64,000 nucleotides of DNA. Origin: Leucoraja ocellata. Lineage: Eukaryota. The stretch is from assembly GCA_036785375.1 (NCBI GenBank), contig JAWMAR010000090.1, positions 1,550,001 to 1,614,000 of the forward strand, read 5' to 3'. Positions 4,825-63,510 of the stretch are shown here, one piece after another (the first letter of the stretch is position 1; each line of letters starts with the position of its first letter). The translations under genes were made by a program, and so were the position numbers. The notes under the pieces are model-generated. The model saw nothing but the letters and a program-made list of their open reading frames with translations, did no database searches and was not told the origin of the DNA.

Positions 4825-6679
4825 TAGCATTGTTACAAAATTTTGAGATTTTAAAAATCAAGTCTGTAATTTATCTCATCAGATAAAGCATAAAAAGAAG
4901 TTTAATTTGACACCTAATTCACTTTCATATCTTCAGTATTAAAAAAGTTATGGCCATTTTCATACTAGGAAATTAGCATCTTATTCCCTATTGCTTTTCC
5001 ATTGACTTAACACAAAAGCTGTGATCGAGCCCATAACTTTCTTAAAAATTAAGAGAACTGAAAGAAATTTTCAGTTATTGTACATTGAAGCATTCTGAAA
5101 CAAATATGAAACAATCTTACTTAGATGACTTGAAATTAAAGCATATAATTAGTTAGTTACCTAATTGTAACTATTCCGGAAGTGGCGGCGGTGTTGAACG
5201 GCTGCTGCTCGCCTGCAGTCCGTCTGTTTTTACTTTTTTGTGGGGTTTTTTCGGCTTGTTTAGTTAAATATTTGGTCATTAGGTTGTGATATGTGTTGGG
5301 GGCGGGGGGGAGCTGAAACAGGGATTTCTGTCTCTCCCTTTGGGGGAATGCGACTTTTTCTTGTCGTATCCCCCTTCTCTGCCTCCGCCTGCGCTGAGGC
5401 CTAATGGCGGAGCTGGCGGCCTCCAACCTGCGACCGACCTCGAGGCTCCGGAGGTAGAGCCAGCCAGGACTCACCAACGCGAGGCTGGCCGTCTTCGAGC
5501 TGTGGCGGTGTTCGGGCAGCGGCACGACTCGGCGCTCCGGTGGGGGTGGCCCGGCACGGGGCTGGAGCGGTGCTGGCTGGGATGTTCCGGTGGCGGCGCG
5601 ACTCGGTGCTTCGGTGAGGGTGGCCCGGGGCTGGGACGGTGCTGGCTGAGATGGACTGGACTGGAGGGCAGCAGCTTCGACCACCCCGGGCGGCGGAGCT
5701 TGAACCGGCCCGTTCGCGGAGCTCGGTGAGCCGCGGGACTGACTTACCATCACCCGGTGGGGTATCACCTCAGCGCAGAGGGAGAATAGGAGGGAAGAGA
5801 CAGTAACCCTAAGATTTTTGCCTCCATCACAGTGAAGAGGTGCCTGGTGAATTCACTGTGGTGGATGTTAATTTGTGTTTATTGTTTGTTTTGTTGTTTT
5901 GTTGTATGGCTGCAGGCAACGACATTTCGTTCAGACCGAAAGATCTGAATGACAAATAAAGGATCTAAGTCTGTCTAAGTTGTAGCTAATTACAAAATTC
6001 AATTACTAGATCTAAACATCTATCAATTTCTTAAGATTAGATTAACATTTTTAAATAGCCTAAGTGTCCAAATAACATTCACATAAGAATTCACAATATA
6101 ACATAATTTTTAAATCTCATTGTCATGGATTTATAGGCCAAATGGAAGGAATTTAATGTTTAATACCTGTAAATTAATGGCCATTTAAATCATCTTGCGA
6201 GTGGATTTTTCTGGAATGCGATCAATTGGAACGTTGCGGTTGCGGTGAATTTAAACCCTATATCGGCAGGAAAAATGCTACCGGTTCGTACGGGAAAAAA
6301 AAAATCACCGTTTCGCAACGTAAAATGTGAATTAAAGGCATCTTAAGGAGCACTTTTATACATATAATAAACGGCTTTCCTTTACCTGTCCCGTACGTGA
6401 AATCCGTCGCCGTTGTCGGCGTTGACGGCTTTAGAAGTTGATTTTAAAATTACCCCAGCGCTGAACTTGTCGGGCGATTTAAAAAAATAAAAAAATACAC
6501 AGAACGGCTGTCGGAACAATTCTTCAGCAAAAGCTTGCACTCCAACCAAATATAATCCAGGACAAGGTGGGAAAAAAATGCGTTTTAACCCCACCGCCCC
6601 CTTCAAAGGCGCCAAAATCGCGCACACGACCAGTGGCAGAATTGCAGCGCCGCTTAAGGTAAGTATTGTAACATACCTA
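4825..6679. mobile_element. Unclassified non-autonomous DNA transposon with TAG...CTA termini
   Basis: Imperfect 14-bp TIR (TAGCATTGTTACAA vs reverse complement TAGGTATGTTACAA) and direct repeat CATACAG at 4818-24 and 6680-86. Removing it restores the CR1 frame. Confidence 0.8.
5170..5979 (+). mobile_element. GC-rich non-autonomous retroelement nested in the DNA transposon
   Basis: CpG-rich head starting TTCCGGAAGTGGCGGCG, internal hairpin, 3' stem-loop TTCAGAccgaaagaTCTGAA, AATAAA and a CTAAGT-type tail. The AT-rich host resumes at TTGTAGCTAATT. Confidence 0.65.
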
Positions 6680-7650
6680 CATACAGGGCAAGATTAACAA
6701 GTTTGCTGATGATACAAAAGTGAGTGGTTTTGCAGATAGTGAAAATGGTTGTGAAGGATTGCAACAGGATCTGGATACATTGGCCAGGTGGGCAGAGGAA
6801 TGGTTGATGAAATTTAATACAGAGAAGTGTGAGATGTTGTATTTTGGGACGTCGAATAAGGGCAGGATTCACACAATAAATGGTAGGCCTGTGGGTAGTG
6901 TTGTAGAGCAGAGTGATCTAGGAGTACACGTGCATGGTTCCTTGAAGGTCGAGTCGCAGGTAGATATGGTGGTCAAAAAGGCTTTTGGCATTTTGTCCTT
7001 CATCAGGTAGAGTAATGAGTATAGAAGTTGGGAGGTCATGTTGCAGTTGTAGAAGACGTTGGTGAGACCGCATTTAGAATATTTTGTTCAGTTCTGGGCA
7101 CCATGTTATAGGAAAGATATTGTCAAGTTTGAAAGGGTTCAGAATAGATTTCCGAGGATGTTGCCAGGACTAGAGGGTGTGAGCTATCGGGAGAGGTTGA
7201 GTAGGCTGGGTCTCTATTCCATGGAGCGCTGGATGATTAGGGGGGGGGGGGGGGGGTCTTATAGATGTGTACAAAATCATGAGAGGAATAGATTGGGTAG
7301 ATTCACAGAGTTTCTTGCCCATAGTAGGGGGATCGAGGACCAGAGGACATAGATTCAAGGTGAAGGGGAAAAGATTTAATAGGAATCCGAGGGGTAACTT
7401 TTTCACACAAAGGGTGGTGGGTGTATGGAACAAACTGCCAGAGGAGGTAGTTGAAGCTGGGACTATCCCATCGTTTAAGAAGCAGATAGACAGGTACATG
7501 GTTATGACAGGTTTGGAGGGATATGGACCAAGCACAGCCAAGTGGGACTTGCGTGGCTGAGACATTGTTGGCCGGTGGGGGCATGTTGGGCCGAAGGGCC
7601 TGTTTCCACACTGTATCGCTCTACGACTCTAAAATAATTCAGGTACTTTC

Positions 7651-12024: not shown

Positions 12025-13051
12025 TCCTTGTGACACCAACTTAAGTGAAATGAGTGAATATTTTCTGTGTGAGAAACTCCTCTCTGATTGTCTCCTAATA
12101 TATTTGGCTATTTGATGCAATTATTGCCAGTAACTCTTTAAAATGTGCTGTACAAATCATCCATATGGGGAAAATACAGGTGTGTTGTGGTGAGTTGTGC
12201 CAGAAAGTGCCTCCTCCAATCTTCCAATGCTTCCATACTTTCACCATAAATCATGTGCAAACACCATAAAACATATCCAAGTATTTGGAGGAAACAGGGA
12301 ACTGCTCCTGGAGTTCGTCCAACACTTCATGTCCAAATAGTTTGAGGCCATTCGTGCTTACAAAAATCAAATGTCATTATTTTTTTAATTTGATTTTAGT
12401 CGGACGTATCTTAGAATGGAGGTTTTTGACAGCAATGAAAGCTGCCAAAATGTTAGTGGCCATAATACATTTGGTATGCACTCATAAGGTGCAACGTTTG
12501 CCTGGAATGTGAATACACTTAAAAAATAATTTATTTATCATATTTTCTTTGCAGTTTGGAGATCTGTGAAACAATATATGAACACAAAGTCTTCTTCTTC
12601 AATATGAAATCCAGTGCGAGCTATATATTGAATGTTGTTGTTGGTTGAATAGCTGATAAAAGTGTTTACTTTTTTTAATATAAAAGAGCTGTTACAGAGT
12701 AACTTTGTTTTATGTTAAAATAGTCATAAAGTACCATTGGCATTCCGTGGAATAGACTTTGTATTAAAAATGTAAACTTTACTGTATGTGTAATATTCTG
12801 ATCATTATTCCTTCCCATGATAACATCCACTGTTATTTCATGCTAGATGTTTTTATATCTTTAAGGTAAATCTATAGGATAAATAGTAGTTTCAATCGCA
12901 AAATATAGAAGCTCCTAACTTTAAACAACGTATTCAGTTTTGTAAATGTGAAATAGATCTAACTCCTGTACCCCAAAATGCTTATGGCCATCGACCCGTG
13001 AGAAATAATATACCGATTCTTCTTCCTCCTCTTAGCACTCTGTGAAAGAAT

Positions 13052-13241
13052 ATGGATCAACAGCCAACTCCTACCATCTTACTAAGTGTGATGGAGGATA
13101 TGCAAGTGTCTGAATTGGAGGATTCAGTTATACAGAGCTTAATAACCCCGAGCCCTCGAAGTGAAATGGTTGCCCACGAGTTGCAAGAGCTTACACTGCA
13201 GACAAATCCACGCTTACCGCCTCTGAATGAGCGGAAAAACG
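13052..13241 (+). CDS. MRTFB: MRTF-B (MKL2) first coding exon, long N-terminal isoform; exon spans 13036-13241
   Basis: Pyrimidine tract plus TAG acceptor ending at 13035. In-frame TGA at 13043-45 precedes ATG 13052. Encodes MDQQ...PSPRSEMVAHELQELTLQTNPRLPPLNERKN, matching recalled MRTF-B PSPQSEAVAHEFQELSLQ..LPPLNERKN. Phase-1 donor G|GTGAGT at 13241/13242. Confidence 0.93.
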
Positions 13242-14617: not shown

Positions 14618-15319
14618 TATTACTAAAAGTCTGATCATGACCGCTTTTGGCCCACTGTGCTGCGATTTCCGAGAGAACGCCGCCACCTATGGCCGTCATT
14701 TTTGGCCACCTAGCTCAGAGCCCCCCTCCGCCTTCCTAGACCCGAGGATTTTTCCCATCGATGAAAAATCAGAAAGATATTAATGTTTTTTTTTTAAATT
14801 CCCTATTCTCTCTGCTGCCCCCGCTGGTGGCAGGGGGCAGGGACTATAAACCCCGGAAGTGTAGTCCCTCACTCAGTCTCTGCCAGACCCAGGAAGCGAG
14901 AGGGTCACGGCTCTCTGAGCTGCGAATAACACTGAACGCACGTCTACTCCACGGTGAGTCCCCTCGATGCAGCTGTAAAGTGGCTGCTGCCCAAATGTTT
15001 GCCTCGCCTTTTTAAAAAGTTTGTGTTCACAAAATGAATTTTGGTTGTCGGGTGGCTGCTGCCCAATTGTTTGCCTTGGCTTGGCTAAAAATGATGCAAC
15101 AGTTGGCTGCCAGCCCAAGAATCCATTCGGCCCACAATGTTAATACTAGCCCTCTGGAAACCAGTACCTTCGGCCAGCAACACCCATACTAGCGCAACAG
15201 AAAGCCCCCCTCCCCCCCCACTGGCAAGCAATATTGGAATAGGTGGAGAGGTGGAATATTGCGTTGGTGACCAGCCCTCCCATGCAATGCTGGGACCCAG
15301 CGGGTCCCACTTAGTCTAG
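14618..15319 (+). mobile_element. Non-autonomous Helitron
   Basis: 5' TATTACTAAAAGTCTGATC matches the reverse complement of 19195-19212. 3' hairpin GGGACCC-agc-GGGTCCC at 15292-15308, then CTAG|T at 15316-20. Confidence 0.88.
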
Positions 15320-21473: not shown

Positions 21474-22055
21474 ATAGAAACATAGAAACATAGAAAATAG
21501 GTGCAGGAGGAGGCCATTCGGCCCTTCGAGCCAGCACCGCCATTCATTGTGATCATGGCTGATCGTCCCCAATCAATAACCCGTGCCTGCCTTCTCCCCA
21601 TATCCCTTGACTCCACTAGACCCTAGAGCTCTATCTAACTCTCTCTTAAATCCATCCAGTGACTTGGCCTCCACTGCCCTCTGTGGCAGGGAATTCCACA
21701 AATTCACAACTCTCTGGATGAATGGTGATTTCATTCAGGAAGTCAATGTTTCAGACATGATACAAAGGGAGATTTAGGAACAAGGACGTCCTACTGCAGT
21801 TGTACAGGGCCCTGGTGAGACCGCACCTGAAGTATTGTCTGCAATTTTGGTCTCCTAATTTGAGGAAGGACATTATTGCTATTGAGCGAGTGTGGCGTAG
21901 GTTCATCAGGTTAATTCCTGGAATGGAGGGACTGACGTATGATGAAAGAATGGGTCGACTGGGCTTGTATTCACTGGAATTTAGAAGGATGAGAGGGGTT
22001 CTTATAGAAGCATATAAAATTCTTAAAGGATTGGACATGCTAGATGCAGGAAAAA
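21474..22055 (-). mobile_element. CR1 insertion with inverted 5' segment
   Basis: Minus-strand 3' tail at 21474-21718 adjoining a plus-strand ORF2 piece at 21772-22055 of the same subfamily (compare 36626-37412). Confidence 0.75.
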
Positions 22056-22084
22056 GGTGGGACCATTCAATACTAAAGGAGGGA

Positions 22085-23345
22085 ATTTATGCTTAGATGA
22101 TGTAGATGAGTACTTTGCATCTATAATCACCAAGGAGGCGGATGTGGAGGACAGTGGGATCATTGTAGGGAATACTAATATGCTAGGAGAGTCTGAGGTT
22201 AAGAAAGAGTGGTGTTAGAGCTCTTGAAGTGCATTAAAATGGATATGCCCTAGGGATGAATTAGATTATCACAGATAATTGAAGGAGTCTAGAAAAGAGA
22301 TAGCAAGAGCCTTACAAAGATCTTTGCATCTACTATAGCCACAGTCAAGTCCCAGAGGACTGGAGAGTAGCCAATGTTGCTCCTTTGTTTCAGAAGAGAA
22401 GTAAATATAATCCAGGAAATTGTAGACACTAGGAACTGCAGATGCCGGTTTGCTGGAGTAACTCAGCGGGTCGGGCAGCATCGCTGGAAGACATGGATAG
22501 GTGACGTTTCGGTCTAATTGTACTAGGAAGCAAGAAAGTTGAGTAAAGTGTTGAGTTTTGAGGAGGTGATCGATGAGACTAAGCAATGGGTGTTGCCTAC
22601 ATGGTCGTTGGTGAGGCATTTGACGAAAGTCTCTCATGGTAGACTGATCCAGAAGATTAAGATTCATGGCATCCACGGCGACTTGTTTGTTTGCATTCAG
22701 AGGGTTGTTTTATTCTGGCTGCTGGTTAACTTGGACATTAATGCAGATAGCTCGCTAATTGGTTTGTGGACAACACAAAAACTGGTAGAGTTGCGGACAG
22801 TGAGGAAGACTGTCAAAGTGTACAACAGGATATTGATCAGCTACAGAAATGGGTAGAGAAATGGTGGATGGAGTTTAATCTGAGCAAGTGTAGATGTTGG
22901 GAGATCAAATGTAAGTAGAAAGTATACAGTTAATGCAGAACACTTAATAGTATTGATGTATAGGGGGATATTGAGGTCCAAGTCCGTAGATCCCTGAAAG
23001 TGACATCACAAGTAGATAAAGTTGTAAAGAAGGGGTATGGTATGCTTGCCTTCGTTGATCAGGGCGTTGAGTATAAGTGCCGGTTACAGCTTTATAGTAC
23101 TTGTTTAGGCAGCATTTGGAATATTATGCGCAGTTCTGGTCGACCCATTACAGAAGGATGTGGAGGCTTGGACAAAGCGCAGAGCAGATTTACCAGGTGA
23201 TTTCTGGATTAAAGAATATTAGCCATAAAGAGAGGTTAGATTAAATGATCAAACTTCTATTGTTTTCTCTGAATCGTCGGAAGTTGAGGTGAGACCTGAT
23301 AGAGGTATATAAAATTATGAGAGGAATAGATGGGTAGACAGTTAG
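22085..23345 (+). mobile_element. Degenerate CR1 ORF2 fragments with a Penelope-type insert at ~22425-22515
   Basis: KVSHGRLIQKIKIHGI and QVDKVVKKGYGML remnants. Confidence 0.75.
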
Positions 23346-26859: not shown

Positions 26860-28448
26860 TCACCCCGCTGCACGAGAAGGGAGCAAAGCAGAATCGTGGG
26901 AACTATCAGCCGGTTAGTCTGACTTTGGTGGTTGGTATGATTTTACTGTCCATTATAAAGAATGAGGTTGCGGAGTACTTAAGTCCACGATAAAATAGGG
27001 CAAAGTCAGCATGGCTTTGTGAAGGGGAAGTCTTGCCTGACAAATTTGCTGGAATTGTGTGAAGAAGTAACTAGCAGGACAGAGAAAGGAGAGTCAGTAG
27101 ATGTTGTATACCTTGATTTTCAGAAATCCTTTGATAAGGTGCCACAGGTGAGGCTACTAAGGAAGATCCGAGCCCATGATATCAAAGGGCAGGTACTGGC
27201 ATGAATTTCAGGTTGGCTGAATGACAGAAGGCAGAGAGGCAATAAAGGGGGCTTTTTCTGCTTGGATGCCAGTGACTAGCGGAGTTCCACAAGGCTCTGT
27301 GCTGGGGCCACTGCTCTTCACGTTGTATATTAATGATTTGGATGAGTGGATTGAAGGCTTTGTGGCCAAGTTTGCAGATGGTACGAAAATAGGTGGAGGG
27401 GCAGGTCGTGTAGAGAAAGCAGTGACTGCAGAATGACTTGGATAGGTTTGGAGAGTGGGCAGATAAATGGCAGCTGGAATGTAGTGTAGCAAGGTGTGGA
27501 ATCATGCATTTTGGTAGTAGGAATAAAGTAGGATTCTTTTCTAAATGGGGAGAGAATCCAGAAATCGGAGGTGCAAAGGGACTTGGTGCATGATTCCCAA
27601 AACGTGAATCTGCAAGTCGAATCAGTAGTAAAGAAAGCAAACTCAATGCTAGCATTTATTTAGAGAGGGCGTATCTACAAAAACGGGGATGTAATGCTGA
27701 GGCTCTAAGGTGCTATTTAGGCCGCATTTGGAATATTGTGAGTTATTTTACGCACCATATCTGAGGAAGGATGTGCTGACTCTGGAGAGGGTCCAGAGGA
27801 GGTTTACAAGAATGATCCCAGGAATGAGTAGGTTAACATATGATGAGCGTTTGACGGCACTGGGCCTACAGTCGCTGGAGTTTAGAAGAATGAGGTGTTG
27901 TCTCATTGAAACGTACAGAACAGTGAAAGGCTTGGATAGAGTGGATGTGGAGAGGATGTTTCTACTAGTGGGAGAGTCTAGGAATAGAGGTCAAAGCCTC
28001 AGAATTAAAGGACATTCTTTTAGGAAGGAGATGATGAGGAATTTCTTTAGTCAGAGGGTGGTGAATCTGTGGAATTCTTTGCCACAGAAGGCTGTGGAGG
28101 CAGTGTCAGTGGATATATTTAAGACCGAGATAGATAGATTAGATAGATAGACACAAAATACTAAAGGGGACAGTTTAAGATTGAGGGGTAAGCCATTTTG
28201 AACGGAGACGAGGAAACACTTTTTCGCACAGAGAGTTGTGAGCCTGTGGAATTCTCTGCCTCAGAAGGTGGTAGAGGCCGGTTCTCTGGATACTTTCAAG
28301 AGAGAGCTAGATAGGGCTCTTAAAGATAGGGGAGAAGGCAGGAACGGGGTACTGATTGTGGATGATCAGCCATGATCACATTGAATGGTGGTGCTGATTC
28401 GAAGGGCCGAATAGCCTACTCCTGCACCTATTGTCTATTGTATATTGC
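26860..28448 (+). mobile_element. CR1 LINE RT domain and 3' end (two joined pieces)
   Basis: GNYQPVSLT, KSCLTNLLE, YLDFQKSFDKVP, GVPQGSVLGP, YINDL and KFADG with frameshifts; (CTATTGT)n tail. Confidence 0.93.
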
Positions 28449-29974: not shown

Positions 29975-30009
29975 TCATTTGACAAGGCCTCTCAGCTCAT
30001 AGTGAGGGA

Positions 30010-30431
30010 TACAAGCTGATTGGAGTGAAGTGCTTTTATGGGAACTGACATTTTTGTGGCAGCTTATTCAGGTGATGTGCCAGCGCAAGGAAGCAAAGGT
30101 TTTTAATCTTTCTTTTGGAACCACAGACCACAAGGACCTTCAAGATCATGAGTACAAAAGCTGCATTTCCTGTGATAATTGGAGTCTGGCAGGATTCCCG
30201 AGGGGGCTGAAACTGACTCACTGACTGCTTTCTGCTTTGGGGCGGCTCTGATTGGTACTCTCACAACAGCGAGGTCTAGGTCTGCCTCTCAAAAGCAGTC
30301 TCCTGCAGTCCTAGAGCAAGCTTTTGGTGTGCACACTGGATGCCTGGCATATTTTCTGTGTACTTCAATGGAACTAAATTACGAATCCGAAGCAAAGTAT
30401 CGTGAATCTGTGGGATTTCAGTCATTAGCAG
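30010..30431 (+). promoter_or_regulatory. Candidate internal promoter / 5' UTR of the alternative exon
   Basis: Unique, TE-free sequence with inverted CCAAT boxes (CTGATTGG; ATTGG at 30019-23 and 30251-55) and a GC box GGGGCGG at 30239-45, directly upstream of the alternative ATG. Confidence 0.5.
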
Positions 30432-30486
30432 ATGGCTCTGCTGGAACCAGAGAGGAACATTGCGTTAGAAAGTAGTTTTAAATCAG
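30432..30486 (+). CDS. MRTFB: Putative alternative first coding exon of MRTF-B (MALLEPERNIALESSFKS + G), myocardin/BSAC-type N-terminus
   Basis: ATG 30432 with G at -3 and G at +4, 18 codons, then phase-1 donor CAG|GTGAAT. Splices in frame to 52855 to give ...SSFKS-VLQLRLQQRR. Resembles recalled BSAC MTLLEPE... and myocardin ...SKFRSVLQLRL. Confidence 0.8.
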
Positions 30487-30990
30487 GTGAATGTCTTTTA
30501 TTTTAAGGCCACATTTCTTAGTATGGAGTAAAACGTTTGATTTGTACACACAACACAACTAATATAGACTCTATTGACTTTTCAGCCTGCATTGTCAGTT
30601 GTTTAAGGAAACTGGAACATTTAGCATTGAAGCAGTATGTTCAGAGACTGAACCTAGTACAATAACTTTTACTACCAGGTTGAGGCATTAAGATGATCAA
30701 ATGAAAATGTGAACTGTTATATCGTGTGGGGCTTTGCCTGAAATGCAGTGTAGCTTTACACTCAAATGACAAAATCAAAGTTTGACTTATTTGACTTGAA
30801 CTTATTAAGATGTTGAGAAACGTTGATCGTAGATCCTAAAATGATTAATGTTATTCATAAAGGACTGGGATCTGTCAATAAAATTGCTTCAAACTAGTCA
30901 AATGTAAAATGATAAGATCTTTCATAGGTAGACAAAAATACTGGAGGAACTCAGCGGGTGAGGCAGCATCTATGGAGAGAAGGAATAGGC

Positions 30991-34400: not shown

Positions 34401-34943
34401 AGGGTTTTTATTGGCATTTAGGGAGGCACACAAGATCCTTAATATTACATGGCAAACGTGCATAAGTATCTAGAACCTTGTTTTTTTTTTAGATGAATAT
34501 TCGGATGGCCTGTGCCCTTGAGCGTCCTGTTTTGAAATTGTCCTGTCTTCAGGCAAAATTACAATTTTGATCCAAATATGAACGCATGATTAGAATTCCA
34601 GAGATGAAGTAAGAATAACTTATTTTTACATTAAGAATCCATTCAATTAAATGTCTTAATTTAGGGTGCCCGATAAAACTGAAATTGATGAAGTTGAAGA
34701 GAAATCTCTTCATTGGCTGTAGTCATAACAACACGAGCAAAGGTCATTGAGTTTGGTGATGACCAGTCATCTCAGCCTTAGCGTAATGCGATGGTTTGCG
34801 AGCACTGTTTAAATCTGTTCACCATTTGGAAATTTGTAGTTAAAATCAGTATGTTTGAATACTTATTCAAAATAATTTATCAAAGCAAAAAATACGTATA
34901 CTTCATATTCTCCCTGATCGCGAAGATTCTATGTAGAATTCTA

Positions 34944-35223
34944 CATCGGCGAGACCAAGCGCAGGCTCTGCGATTGCTTCACTGAACACCACCGCTCAGT
35001 CCGTGTTAACCAACCTGATCGCCCGGTGGCTCAGCACTTCAACTTCCCCTACCATTCCCAATCCGACCTTTCTGTCCTGGGCCTCCTCCATTGCCAGAGT
35101 GAGGCACAGCGCAAATTGGAGGAACAGACTCTGAAGAAGGGTCTCGACCCGAACCGTCGCTTATTCCTTCTCTCCATAGATGCTGCCTCACCCGCTGAGT
35201 TTCTCCAGCATTTTATGTCTACC
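34944..35223 (+). mobile_element. Internally deleted Penelope-like element: GIY-YIG fragment fused to hammerhead-bearing terminal repeat
   Basis: YIGETKRRL..PVAQHFN..LSVLGLLHCQSEAQRKLEEQ runs directly into CTGAAGAAGGGTCTCGACCCGAAC. 10-bp TSD TAGAATTCTA at 34934-43 and 35224-33. Confidence 0.9.
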
Positions 35224-35410
35224 TAGAATTCTAGGAGCCGATTTTACATCCTTGGGACAGCTCAGCCTCAAGACTGACTGTGACTCGGTATTTTCTTTTC
35301 ACATTGTTTAAACAAGCAATAAACAAAATAACAAAGAAATCTAGGTGTGCTGACCTAAAGCCTCTTATTTTTAAATTCGTAAAAGTTTGCTGGAGCTATT
35401 ATAGTAATTA

Positions 35411-52854: not shown

Positions 52855-52920
52855 TACTTCAATTAAGGCTACAGCAGAGACGGACGAGAGAACAGCTGGT
52901 GGACCAGGGGATCATGCCAC
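52855..52920 (+). CDS. MRTFB: MRTF-B RPEL1 exon (66 nt, phase 1-1)
   Basis: Acceptor ttcttcctttcctggcag| and donor C|GTAAGC. With the upstream G it reads (V)LQLRLQQRRTREQLVDQGIMP, identical to recalled MRTF-B RPEL1; MRTF-A has LKLQ..EELVSQ and myocardin has TQEQLANQ. Confidence 0.96.
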
Positions 52921-54316: not shown

Positions 54317-55948
54317 CAGTGCCCTCCATAATGTTTGGGGCAAAGACCCATCATTTATTTATTTGCCTCTGTACTCCACAATTTGAGATTTGTAATAGAA
54401 AAAATCACGCTGTTAAAGTGCACATTGTCAGATTTTAATAAAGGCCATGTTTATACATTTTGGTTTCACCATGTAGAAATTACAGCAGTGTTTATACATT
54501 GTGCTCCCCATTTCAGGGCACCATAATGTTTGGGACACATGGCTTCACGGGTGTTTGTAATTGCTCAGGTGTGTTTAAATGCCTCCTTAATGCAGGTATA
54601 AGAGAGCTCTCAGCACCTAGTCTTTCCTCTGGTCTTTCCATCACATTTGGAAAATTTTATTGTTGTTTATCAACATGAGAACCAAAGTTGTGCGAATGAA
54701 AGTCAAAGAAGCCATTATGAGACTGAGAAACAAGAATAAAACTGTTAGAGACATCAGCCAAAACTTACCAAAATCAAATGTTTGAAACATCATTAAAAAG
54801 AAAGAGAGCACTGTTGAGCTTACTAATCACAAAGGGACTGGCAGGCCAAGGAAGACCTCCACAGCTGATGTCAGAAGAATTATCTCTATAATAAAGAAAA
54901 ATCCCCAAACACCAGTCCGACAGATCAGAAACACTCTTCAGGTGTGGATTTGTCAATGGCCACTGTCCGCATAAGACTTCATGAATAGAAATACAGAGGC
55001 AACACTGCAAGATGCAAACCACTGGTTAGCTGCAAAAATAGGATGGCCAGGTTACAGTTTGCCAAGAAGTACTTAAAAGAGTAAACGCAGTTCTAGAAAA
55101 AGGTCTTATGGACAGATGAGACGAAGATATCGAACTTATATCAGAGTGATGGCAAGAGCAAAATACGGAGGAGAGAAGGAACTGCCCAAGACCCAAAGCA
55201 TACCACCTCATCTGTGAAACACGGTGGTGGGGGTGTTGTGGCCTGGGCATGTATGGCTGCTGAAGGTACTGGCTCACTTATCGTCATTGATGATACAACG
55301 CTGATGGTAGTAGCATATTGAATTCTGAAGTGTATAGAAACATCCTATCTGCTCAAGTTCAAACAAATGCCTCAAAACTCATTGGCCAGCGGTTCATTCA
55401 ACAGCAAGACAATGATCCCAAACATACTGCTAAAGCAACAAAAGAGTTTTTCAAAGCTAAAAATTGGTCAATTCTTGAGTGGCCAAGTCAATCACCCGAT
55501 CTGAACCCAATTGAGCATGTCTTTTATATGCTGAAGAGAAAACTGAGGGGGACTAGCCCCCAAAACAAGCATAAGCTAAAGATGGTTGCAATACAGGCCT
55601 GGCAGAGCATCACAGAGAAGACACCCAGCAACTGGTGATGTCCATGAATCGCAGACTTCAAGCGGTCATTGCATGCAAAGGATATGCAATAAAATACTAA
55701 ACATGACTACTTTCATTTACATGACATTGCTGTGTCCCAAACATTATGGTGCCGTGAAATGGGGGGACTATGTATAAACGCTGCTGTAATTTCTACATGG
55801 TGAAACCAAAATGTATAAAAATGGCCTTAAAATCTGACAATGTGCACTTTAACCACATGCTTTTCCCTATTACAAATCTCAAATTGTGGAGTACAGAGGT
55901 AAATAAATATATGATGGGTCTTTGTCCCAAACATTATGGAGGGCACTG
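54317..55948 (+). mobile_element. Full-length IR/DR-type Tc1 transposon (1632 bp)
   Basis: ~220-bp TIRs starting CAGTGCCCTCCATAATGTTTGGG with inner repeat CCATAATGTTTGGGAC; TA TSD at 54315-16 and 55949-50. Confidence 0.96.
54675..55700 (+). pseudogene. Tc1 DD34E transposase, disrupted
   Basis: GRPRKT linker, VLWTDETK, VKHGGG and QQDNDPKH...SPDLNPIE (34 residues between D and E); several stops and frameshifts. Confidence 0.93.
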
Positions 55949-61469: not shown

Positions 61470-62745
61470 GGTGCCGGGAGACTGGAAGATGGCAAACTTT
61501 GTGCCTCCATTCAGGAAGGGTTGCAGGGAAAGGCCTGGGAACTACAACCAGTGAGCCTAACAATCTGTGGTCCTAATGTGATCAATCTGTTGTCTATTGT
61601 AAAGTTGCTGGTGAGTATTCTGTGAGATAAGATATACTTACATGAATTTACATCAACAAGGGCTGGTTAGAGATGGTCAGCATGATTTTGTACATGGGAG
61701 GGTGTCTTACAAATCTGAGTTAATGAGGGCAGAACTGCAGACTTATCAGCAAAGCATTTGACAAGGTTCTGCATGGTAGGCTGCTCTAGAAAGTTAGATC
61801 ACATGGGATCCAAGGAGAGATAGCTGAATGAATTTTTAAAAATCGGCTTCATGGAAGGAAGCAGAGGATAGAGGGCAGTTTTTCTGACGAGGCCTATGAC
61901 TAGTTGTGTGCCTCAGGCCTTGGCCCATTGCTGTTTGTCATCTACATCAATGATTTGGATAAGAACGTACAAGGCACGGTTAGCAAGTTGACAGATAACA
62001 CTAAAGTGAGTGGTATTGTAGATAATGAAAATGGTTGCTAAAATTTTGCAGCAGGATCTTGATCGGTTGGGCAGGTAGGGCTTGAGGATTAGTTGAAGGG
62101 GTTTAATGCAGAGAAATGTGAGGCGTTGTATTTTGGGAAGTCTAACAAGGGCAGGACCTACACAGTGAATGGTAGGACTGTGGGGAGTGTTGTAGAGCAG
62201 ACGGATCAAGGTCTGCAGTTAGTTCTTGAAAGTGGTATCGCAGATAGATGGGGTGTCAAAAGGCTTTCGGCACATTGCCCTTCATCAGTCAGAGTACTGC
62301 AAAATAGAAGTTGAGAGGCCATGTTACAGTTCTACAAGGCACTGGCGAGGCCAGATTTAGAGTATTATGTTCAGTTTCGGTCACCATGCTATAGGAAAGA
62401 TGTTGTCAAGCCGAAAAGGGTGCAGGGAATATTTACGAGGATGTTGCCAGGGCTCGAGGGCCTGAGCTATAGGGAACGGTTGATCAGGGTAGGACTTTAT
62501 TCCTTGAAGTGCAGGAGGATGCAGGGTGATCTTATAGTGTACAAAATCATGAAAAGAATACATCAGGTAAATGCCCAGAGTCTTTTGCCTAGAGTCGGGG
62601 AATCAAGAACCAGAGGACATAGGTGTAAGGTGAGGGGGATAAGATTTAATAGAAACCTGAGGTGTAACTTATTTTCAAAGGGTGGCGAGTGTAAGGACCA
62701 AGCTTACATGTTGCAGCAGGTACTATTGCAACGTTTAAGAAACAG
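61470..62745 (+). mobile_element. CR1 LINE RT region; continues at 63511-63630
   Basis: AFDKV, YINDL and ALARPDLEYYVQF motifs; related to 4076-7633. Confidence 0.9.
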
Positions 62746-62756
62746 TATCGCACAGG

Positions 62757-62902
62757 NNNNNNNNNNNNNNNNNNNNNNNNNNNNNNNNNNNNNNNNNNNN
62801 NNNNNNNNNNNNNNNNNNNNNNNNNNNNNNNNNNNNNNNNNNNNNNNNNNNNNNNNNNNNNNNNNNNNNNNNNNNNNNNNNNNNNNNNNNNNNNNNNNNN
62901 NN
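62757..62902. other. Assembly gap (146 N)
   Basis: Run of N. Confidence 1.
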
Positions 62903-63510
62903 CATCATGCAGGCAGGGGACAGGGCAAGCGGGGGGAGCACTATCTGAGTGAAATTCACATGGTGCATAGCCAAGGAGGCACACCACGATGAACAGGAAG
63001 GTTGGCGCTGTAATTAAGACGACTAAAGCACAGTGTACAGTAAGTCCTTTAAAAGAAGGGGTGGGGAGTGGAGGGAGAAGGAGTGGAGACAACTTTTTAG
63101 AAGCCAGAGATACACGGCTGTGAAACTCGGCGGACATTTAGTATTACTGGTCGGTTATCCTTTGTTCTGAAAACTACTGCTTACGTTTTTTTTTCCCAAT
63201 GAGCCAATGAAATTCACTGGTCAGCACCGGCTACAACCTACGAGAATCTACGAGATCCTTCGACCTCCTAGCGACCCACCTACGGCACGAGAATTCTCGC
63301 TACTCTCCATGGCGGCTCCATTCTGGTCGCCGCTAATTTTTCAACATGTTGAAAAATCTACGGCGATCATAATGAGGCCGCGACTAGTTCCCAGAATGCG
63401 GGAACCCCTCACGACCATGAAGGCGACTCCCCGGCAACCACCCGCGAACATGTGGCGACTGCATAATCTCCTGCAGTCGCCTAAAAAGTCGCCTATGTGG
63501 GACAGGCCCA
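62903..63510. mobile_element. Harbinger-like MITE, right part (left end lost at the gap)
   Basis: Ends AAAAGTCGCCTATGTGGGACAGGCCCA|TTA; CR1 resumes at TTAGACAGGTACATGG. Confidence 0.75.

Follow-up and report, generated by a model that had tools for sequence, protein, structure and literature searches.

Judged from its sequence, the window, by which we mean the whole 64,000-nt stretch analyzed here, holds the 5′ part of the MRTF-B gene of a rajid skate, a chondrichthyan (Table 1). When the long upstream exon with its ATG at position 13052 was compared with proteins, all 17 matches were either MRTF-B-named proteins or one member of a skate cluster, and the exon differed from that of Amblyraja radiata by one residue. 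In a tree of 27 proteins from which the first exons had been removed, the skate, shark and fish bearers of the short exon described below fell inside MRTF-B (100/99), and MRTF-A plus MRTF-B (98/97) stood apart from myocardin plus MASTR (98/95); this tree was built without full-length shark myocardin or MASTR, and the hagfish sequence forms a long branch with a loose placement. A quick tree of 43 rows agreed with it. The assignment to a chondrichthyan MRTFB gene, made in a preliminary description of this DNA, was thus borne out by both the long-exon matches and the tree.

Table 1. Features of the MRTF-B locus in the window
Feature	Position	Strand	Description
Competing upstream exon, long isoform	13036..13241	+	ATG 13052, 63 codons, ends ..ERKN, phase 1
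CCAAT box CCAATCAG, candidate promoter element	30016..30023	-	sequence match
GC box GGGGCGG, candidate core promoter	30239..30245	+	sequence match
CCAAT box CCAATCAG, candidate core promoter	30248..30255	-	adjoins GC box
Out-of-frame upstream ORF, overlaps the ATG of the short exon	30368..30475	+	35 codons, weak context
Coding part, alternative (short) first exon of MRTF-B	30432..30486	+	18 codons + 1 nt, phase 1
Splice donor GTGAAT	30487..30492	+	context CAG|GTGAAT, strong donor, phase 1
Shared RPEL1 exon	52855..52920	+	66 nt, phase 1-1, common to long and short starts

The long exon appears to carry an S-P site, an NES1-like segment and the basic half of an ERK docking motif, roles that are carried over from mouse MRTF-A by similarity. 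The Leucoraja RefSeq model has an extra Pro before LNERKN that is absent from the window, from Amblyraja and from the Logan members of the cluster, and this Pro is either a species difference or an assembly error. Pfam detected three RPELs and a SAP domain in the RefSeq skate short isoform; the window itself holds RPEL1 only. Between ..ERKN and RPEL1, catshark MRTF-B has an insert of 17 residues and coelacanth MRTF-B one of 36, both at the place of the rodent 21-residue SOLOIST micro-exon. No counterpart of the catshark, coelacanth or rodent insert was found in the window between 13242 and 52854: tblastn with these inserts gave short chance matches only, and a set of 76 symmetric micro-exon candidates yielded no convincing one. 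A micro-exon that breaks the ERK dock may be old or may have evolved repeatedly.

Repeats within the window account for about 27% of its length, and 146 N are found near 62.8 kb. A Tc1/mariner-type transposase fragment was detected at 55294-55638 on the plus strand (Pfam DDE_3, E 4e-10). Four further segments (6672-7560, 21761-22096, 27701-28150 and 62315-62992) resemble what we take to be reverse-transcriptase ends of CR1/L2 LINEs; the one tested gave no Pfam match. The frame at 34918-35226 (+) resembles a remnant of a Penelope-type GIY-YIG endonuclease, and gave no Pfam match either.

The short exon encodes the 18-codon peptide MALLEPERNIALESSFKS, with its ATG at 30432-30434 and one extra base at 30486. 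Joining 30486 to 52855 keeps the frame into the RPEL1 exon, so that the phase-1 donor and the in-frame splice claimed before were both found. The acceptor of the RPEL1 exon is preceded by a tract with 17 pyrimidines in 20. This exon matches mouse MRTF-A RPEL1 structures and supplies both the first actin-binding helix and the second half of a MEF2-type helix. The start codon had been credited with a good Kozak context, which we found to be only moderate (C at -3, G at +4), and an out-of-frame upstream ORF overlaps it. In RefSeq, isoform X4 begins with exactly this peptide (18/18) in two skates, Leucoraja erinacea (XP_055507811.1) and Amblyraja radiata (XP_032896206.1). These XP_ entries are predicted models; RefSeq isoform models are usually built on RNA-seq junctions. 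The exon is consequently real, as claimed, given these two identical starts and its top profile rank in the window (see below), but it is not hidden, since RefSeq already carries the same N-terminus for two skates. Among the 15 of 22 members of the skate cluster that were listed, none of the six from Logan begins with the short exon, so that the RNA evidence for it is indirect.

Other short isoforms were reached via the long exon, via cluster members and via the N-terminal 40 residues of the short isoform from horn shark (MALLEPERSIVLRSKFKS..). Of 20 chondrichthyan species, 18 had the 18-residue start in their MRTF-B; none was seen in Mobula hypostoma (15 of 20 cluster members) or in Pristiophorus (one protein). 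M1-A2-L3-L4 and F16-K17-S18 were invariant in all 18 species and the length was constant. The conservation in other chondrichthyans, whose absence had been named as evidence against the exon, is therefore found. The horn shark residues retrieved 90 proteins among 1751 candidates, including MRTF-B of chimaera and sevengill, fish myocardins, and MRTF-B of bowfin and teleosts. In bowfin and teleosts, the short start of MRTF-B ends in ..CRGKFKS, often with a 15-residue extension, and in paddlefish two of seven MRTF-B isoforms have a short start. A search of the ESM Atlas with the same 40 residues returned RPEL clusters only (0.84-0.86) and was uninformative. Teleost duplicates seem to divide the first exons between them: one copy has the long start, while mrtfbb often has the myocardin-type start alone (Pempheris, Lampris, Kryptolebias, Scomber). 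In Scomber, the copy with the long start also has a decayed short start.

The relationship of the exon to the first exons of myocardin and MASTR was assessed with a profile built from nine distinct myocardin, MASTR and hagfish first-exon peptides only, and hence independent of MRTF-B. Among 51,981 stop-free 18-codon segments on both strands, the skate exon ranked first (37.4; next 23.4), and it was also first among the 46 of these with an initial Met and a phase-1 GT at the end (next 2.3). All but one of about 24 chondrichthyan and ray-finned short starts scored between 26 and 52 (shuffle p = 0.0005 each), the exception being a 17-residue teleost start from Scomber (-5.6). Scores below zero were obtained with long starts (six), amniote isoform-1 starts (four) and MRTF-A starts (six). 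The likeness is visible in the sequences themselves: sharks end in ..LRSKFKS and myocardin in ..IRSKF[KR]S, fish myocardins read MTLLGSEHSILIRSKFKS, lizard and turtle MASTR begin MTLLASERSMLIRSKFRS, and the hagfish myocardin-like protein has ..LLIRNKFRS. Rat BSAC starts with MTLLEPEMLMMAVQS, as given in the part of the supplement of PMC3821035 that lists it. The starts given in the preliminary description agree with this supplement for BSAC and with database proteins for myocardin and MASTR, and its proposal that the exon combines features of these proteins holds insofar as the exon is a homologue of myocardin/MASTR exon 1 and bears a likeness to BSAC. We are all but certain that the short exon is real and shares this homology.

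Two other candidates were rejected. The 40-residue isoform 1 of amniote MRTF-B (..KSLKE), considered as a diverged orthologue, scored -15 to -22 on the profile (shuffle p 0.6-0.9), and a segment of the window at 14960 that matches a Rhinoraja alternative start over five residues has neither its Met nor its ending. Using amniote isoform-1, teleost MRTF-A or stingray MRTF-A alternative exons as queries, tblastn of the window gave short chance matches only. By eye, the start of stingray MRTF-A X1 is similar to that of isoform 1 of amniote MRTF-B (M-x-D-x-S..EIL..C..); the starts of teleost MRTF-A have the ending ..SLR[EQ]. This third class of alternative start may also be older than the A/B split.

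The MEF2-binding motif of myocardin is reported to lie within residues 1-27 and to overlap half of RPEL1 (PMC9900090). Passages of PMC3362810 and PMC9900090 call it unique to myocardin and MASTR within the family, and the former, a review, states that the motif confers MEF2 co-activation when moved to MRTF-A. HDAC4 contacts MEF2 through V171, K172, L175, F178 and V179, according to PMC10954479; in the register that we infer, this spacing would fit I12, R13, F16, V19 and L20 of myocardin and L12, R13, F16, V19 and L20 of sharks. Residues 12-20, which span the splice junction, show the pattern of an amphipathic helix, hydrophobic at 12, 16, 19 and 20 and basic at 13, 15 and 17. The skate has the anchors L12, F16, V19 and L20, and these positions, assigned as anchors by way of HDAC4, are hydrophobic in all 18 chondrichthyans; the long isoform has Arg at position 16.

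The basic positions behave differently. R13 and K15 are invariant in the nine myocardin/MASTR profile peptides, whereas the skate exon has E13 and S15 and so lacks these basic residues of the motif. Each of R13 and K15 occurs in 11 of 18 chondrichthyans and both together in 8; skates have E/Q13 with S/N15, carpet sharks A/T15, and three carcharhiniform sharks Pro13, which would be expected to break the helix. Position 12 is mostly Cys in teleosts. R13E and K15S place the skate copy among the starts least likely to bind MEF2, and the constraint on this binding may have been relaxed in MRTF-B. Going by these residues, we would give MEF2 co-activation by the short isoforms of sharks and teleosts an even chance, and we find it doubtful for that of the skate; the predicted function would suit sharks, stingrays, chimaera and teleosts better than the skate.

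It is possible, if rather unlikely, that the exon, homologous as it is, merely removes NES1 and the ERK dock and provides a tissue-specific promoter, as in BSAC, MEF2 binding having been lost in MRTF-B generally. F16-K17-S18 would then have been kept for the helix, for packing against RPEL1 or for another partner such as ARP5, which is reported to bind the same segment 1-27 of myocardin (PMC9900090). The independent variation of R13 and K15 in skates, carpet sharks and carcharhiniforms, including Pro13, speaks for this account, as do the persistence of BSAC despite the loss of all its basic residues and the report that in the mouse MRTF-A as well as MRTF-B occurs in variants that have NES1 and the ERK dock and in others that do not (PMC4963197). 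However, among 62 ray-finned entries, a set enriched for matches by its retrieval with the shark start, 60 have R13 and 55 have K15, several sharks equal myocardin at six of the seven positions 12-18, and the sufficiency of the motif on an MRTF-A body, as stated in the review cited above (PMC3362810), is a further argument for a start that can bind MEF2.

Upstream of the short exon, the 8-mer CCAATCAG of the CCAAT boxes, chosen post hoc, occurs twice in the 64 kb, both times within 420 nt of the exon. The looser pattern CCAAT[CG][AG]G has eight sites in the 64 kb, two of them upstream of the exon, and the strict consensus RRCCAAT[CG][AG] has 14 matches in the window, none of them there. A CpG island is absent from this region (o/e 0.30), and neither a MEF2 site nor a CArG or TATA box was detected between 29900 and 30900. 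The CCAAT and GC boxes are thus present as had been claimed, but without the strict consensus and a CpG island they are only suggestive of a promoter of the short exon. If they act as such, their positions would place the transcription start near 30300-30350. Five upstream ATGs lie in 29980-30431, and the upstream ORF is relevant only with a transcription start 5′ of it.

Alternatively, the exon could be internal, or 5′-extended, and follow a non-coding first exon, the CCAAT and GC boxes being incidental. The absent CpG island and the lack of a strict NF-Y consensus would suit this arrangement, as would three AG dinucleotides within 12 nt 5′ of the ATG, which directly follows a CAG. However, these AGs have 10-11 pyrimidines in the preceding 20 nt, like 35-47% of all AGs, compared to 17-18 at two real acceptors, and it is because of these poor tracts that we favor the status of a first exon. 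Since the teleost and hagfish frames also run 15 and 7 codons upstream of the Met, and BSAC is described as having its own 5′ exon (PMC3821035), we regard an internal exon as very improbable.

The short exon occurs on both sides of the split between myocardin/MASTR and MRTF-A/B, as well as in hagfish, which argues for an origin before the vertebrate duplications. That it is older than these duplications is highly probable, and descent from a single pre-duplication vertebrate gene would be the simplest account of the sequences. A later transfer into MRTF-B from myocardin, by gene conversion or exon shuffling, is very improbable, for although eel MRTF-B and myocardin are placed on a contig of equal length and have nearby locus tags, and no intact copy was seen among six alternative or long starts of non-mammalian MRTF-A, LLEPE is common to shark MRTF-B and rat BSAC while myocardin has LLGSE and MASTR LLASE, which points to an A/B ancestor, and the hagfish has the motif with LLGPE.

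The suggestion that this is the ancestral first exon of the family holds for vertebrates, but there are two or more old first exons, of which this is one, and it was not seen in invertebrates. The motif is absent from all 28 invertebrate-type representatives, which is weak evidence because a cluster is seldom represented by a short isoform, and it was not seen in Saccoglossus, Ciona or three deuterostome-like sequences. Most invertebrate starts have an S-P site and an acidic stretch followed by ..DKNKE; by eye they resemble the long vertebrate exon, and for this reason the long start looks older. The hagfish ending ..MDRRKN forms a bridge between ..DKNKE and the long vertebrate ending. In the wasp Trichogramma, MRTF has two alternative N-termini at the RPEL1 border, so that the swapping of starts at this border is itself ancient. 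Among 30 named sarcopterygian MRTF-B starts, 19 were of the isoform-1 type, 11 were long, with or without an insert, and none was short, in a thin sample with one coelacanth and one frog fragment. The short start was likely lost in amniote MRTF-B; amphibians and coelacanth, with a single protein each, bracket this loss only loosely. Amniote MRTF-A, MRTF-B and myocardin isoforms were under-sampled, as 41 of 86 rows and 29 of 143 representatives were left unused.

With moderate confidence, we favor an explanation in which two starts share one RPEL1 exon and the short one was inherited from the single vertebrate gene that preceded the duplications. In fish MRTF-B, the long start (13052-13241) and the short start (30432-30486) would be spliced to the same RPEL1 exon; the former would bring the S-P site, the nuclear export signal and the ERK docking motif, and the latter would be paralogous to exon 1 of myocardin and MASTR and, judging by its likeness, also to the BSAC exon of MRTF-A. 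The pre-duplication vertebrate gene probably had both promoters. Myocardin and MASTR would have retained the short start and MRTF-A/B both, with the short one apparently decayed in mammalian MRTF-A (BSAC) and none seen in amniote MRTF-B.

The short start takes the place of the NES1 segment and of the ERK dock's basic half, and RPEL1 stays intact. In the sections of PMC4963197 on mouse MRTF-A, the long start is reported to contain NES1 and S33, its last residues complete the ERK docking motif, and BSAC is described as having neither this dock nor S98 phosphorylation. By analogy, the short isoform would be an SRF co-activator that binds G-actin via three RPELs and, with NES1 and the ERK dock gone, may be coupled less closely to ERK and lie somewhat more in the nucleus. 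Its helix probably docks in the MEF2 co-factor groove, like that of myocardin, in sharks, stingrays, chimaera and the majority of ray-finned fishes. In rajid skates, which keep the hydrophobic anchors, R13E and K15S have probably weakened or abolished this binding.

Mutation of the RPEL1 leucines LL74/78 is reported to block actin binding (PMC4963197). As L20 and L24 correspond to these leucines and are part of the MEF2-type helix as well as of the first actin-binding helix of RPEL1, actin and MEF2 would compete for one helix. We therefore put forward, tentatively, that in most fishes one isoform of MRTF-B acts as an actin-gated co-activator of MEF2, with a MEF2 site that would be masked by G-actin and freed by Rho-driven polymerization. 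If this is true, it would constitute a direct route from Rho and actin to MEF2 that mammals are without, as their myocardin is actin-blind and the RPELs of MASTR are lost. In the pre-duplication gene, the choice of promoter would then have decided between an ERK/SRF mode and a MEF2 mode, and in myocardin and MASTR one of the two isoforms would have become permanent. Fish myocardins have an intact-looking RPEL2 (RPEK..L). Non-mammalian myocardin may accordingly still be regulated by actin, and an actin-gated MEF2 co-activator might not be special to MRTF-B.

The isoform is already annotated, and its identity as the myocardin/MASTR exon seems undescribed. In the literature, with subscription papers thinly covered, we found no description of a myocardin-type first exon or a MEF2 motif in fish MRTF-B. 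The passages of PMC3821035 on MKL1 N-termini speculate, by analogy with myocardin, that these may bind other factors, and note no homology. Part of the homology might already be visible in the alignments of PMC4963197 (Fig 8B) and PMC9900090 (Fig 6A) or in bioRxiv supplements. The gain is thus one of interpretation and not of gene discovery. The motif would not be confined to myocardin and MASTR, the homologous exon being a conserved MRTF-B start in cartilaginous and ray-finned fishes; these two proteins would be recast as specialized descendants of one promoter isoform of an ancestral vertebrate gene, and BSAC would be explained as a probable remnant of the short exon. Fish mrtfb genes may be predicted to act on MEF2 targets, which bears on how redundancy between myocardin and MRTFs is read in zebrafish heart and muscle. 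The intact shark start, the skate with R13E/K15S, the catshark with Pro13 and BSAC together form a natural mutagenesis panel for the motif.

Several known systems resemble the arrangement found here. The MEF2-binding helix of class IIa HDACs and Cabin1, with hydrophobic residues at i, i+4, i+7 and i+8 and a basic one at i+1, fits positions 12, 13, 16, 19 and 20, but these are unrelated proteins and repressors. Isoform 1 of amniote MRTF-B is likewise an alternative first exon that uses the same junction and is without NES1 and the ERK dock, so that a positional relationship is possible. In BSAC of rodent MRTF-A, a separate 5′ exon with an MTLLEPE head and a terminal Ser meets RPEL1 at its border, and the ERK dock is absent; it differs, in a comparison by eye only, in that it has 15 residues instead of 18, lacks basic residues and has Val where the short exon has Phe16. 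MASTR, described as a MEF2 co-activator in the review PMC3362810, has LLAS and RSKF in common with the chimaera MRTF-B start, but lizard MASTR has one RPEL stretch, whereas MRTF-B keeps the SRF/actin machinery. Mammalian myocardin is reported to bind actin poorly and to be constitutively nuclear (PMC4963197). Exon 1 of its cardiac form (MYOCD-935) matches the shark and skate exon over 18 residues without a gap, ends in F-[KR]-S before VLQL, and joins RPEL1 at the same residue as the short MRTF-B start, so that the protein junctions coincide. Unlike in myocardin, the exon provides here an alternative start for an MRTF-B protein in which Pfam detects three RPEL stretches, and in the skate it carries E13 and S15 in place of R13 and K15.
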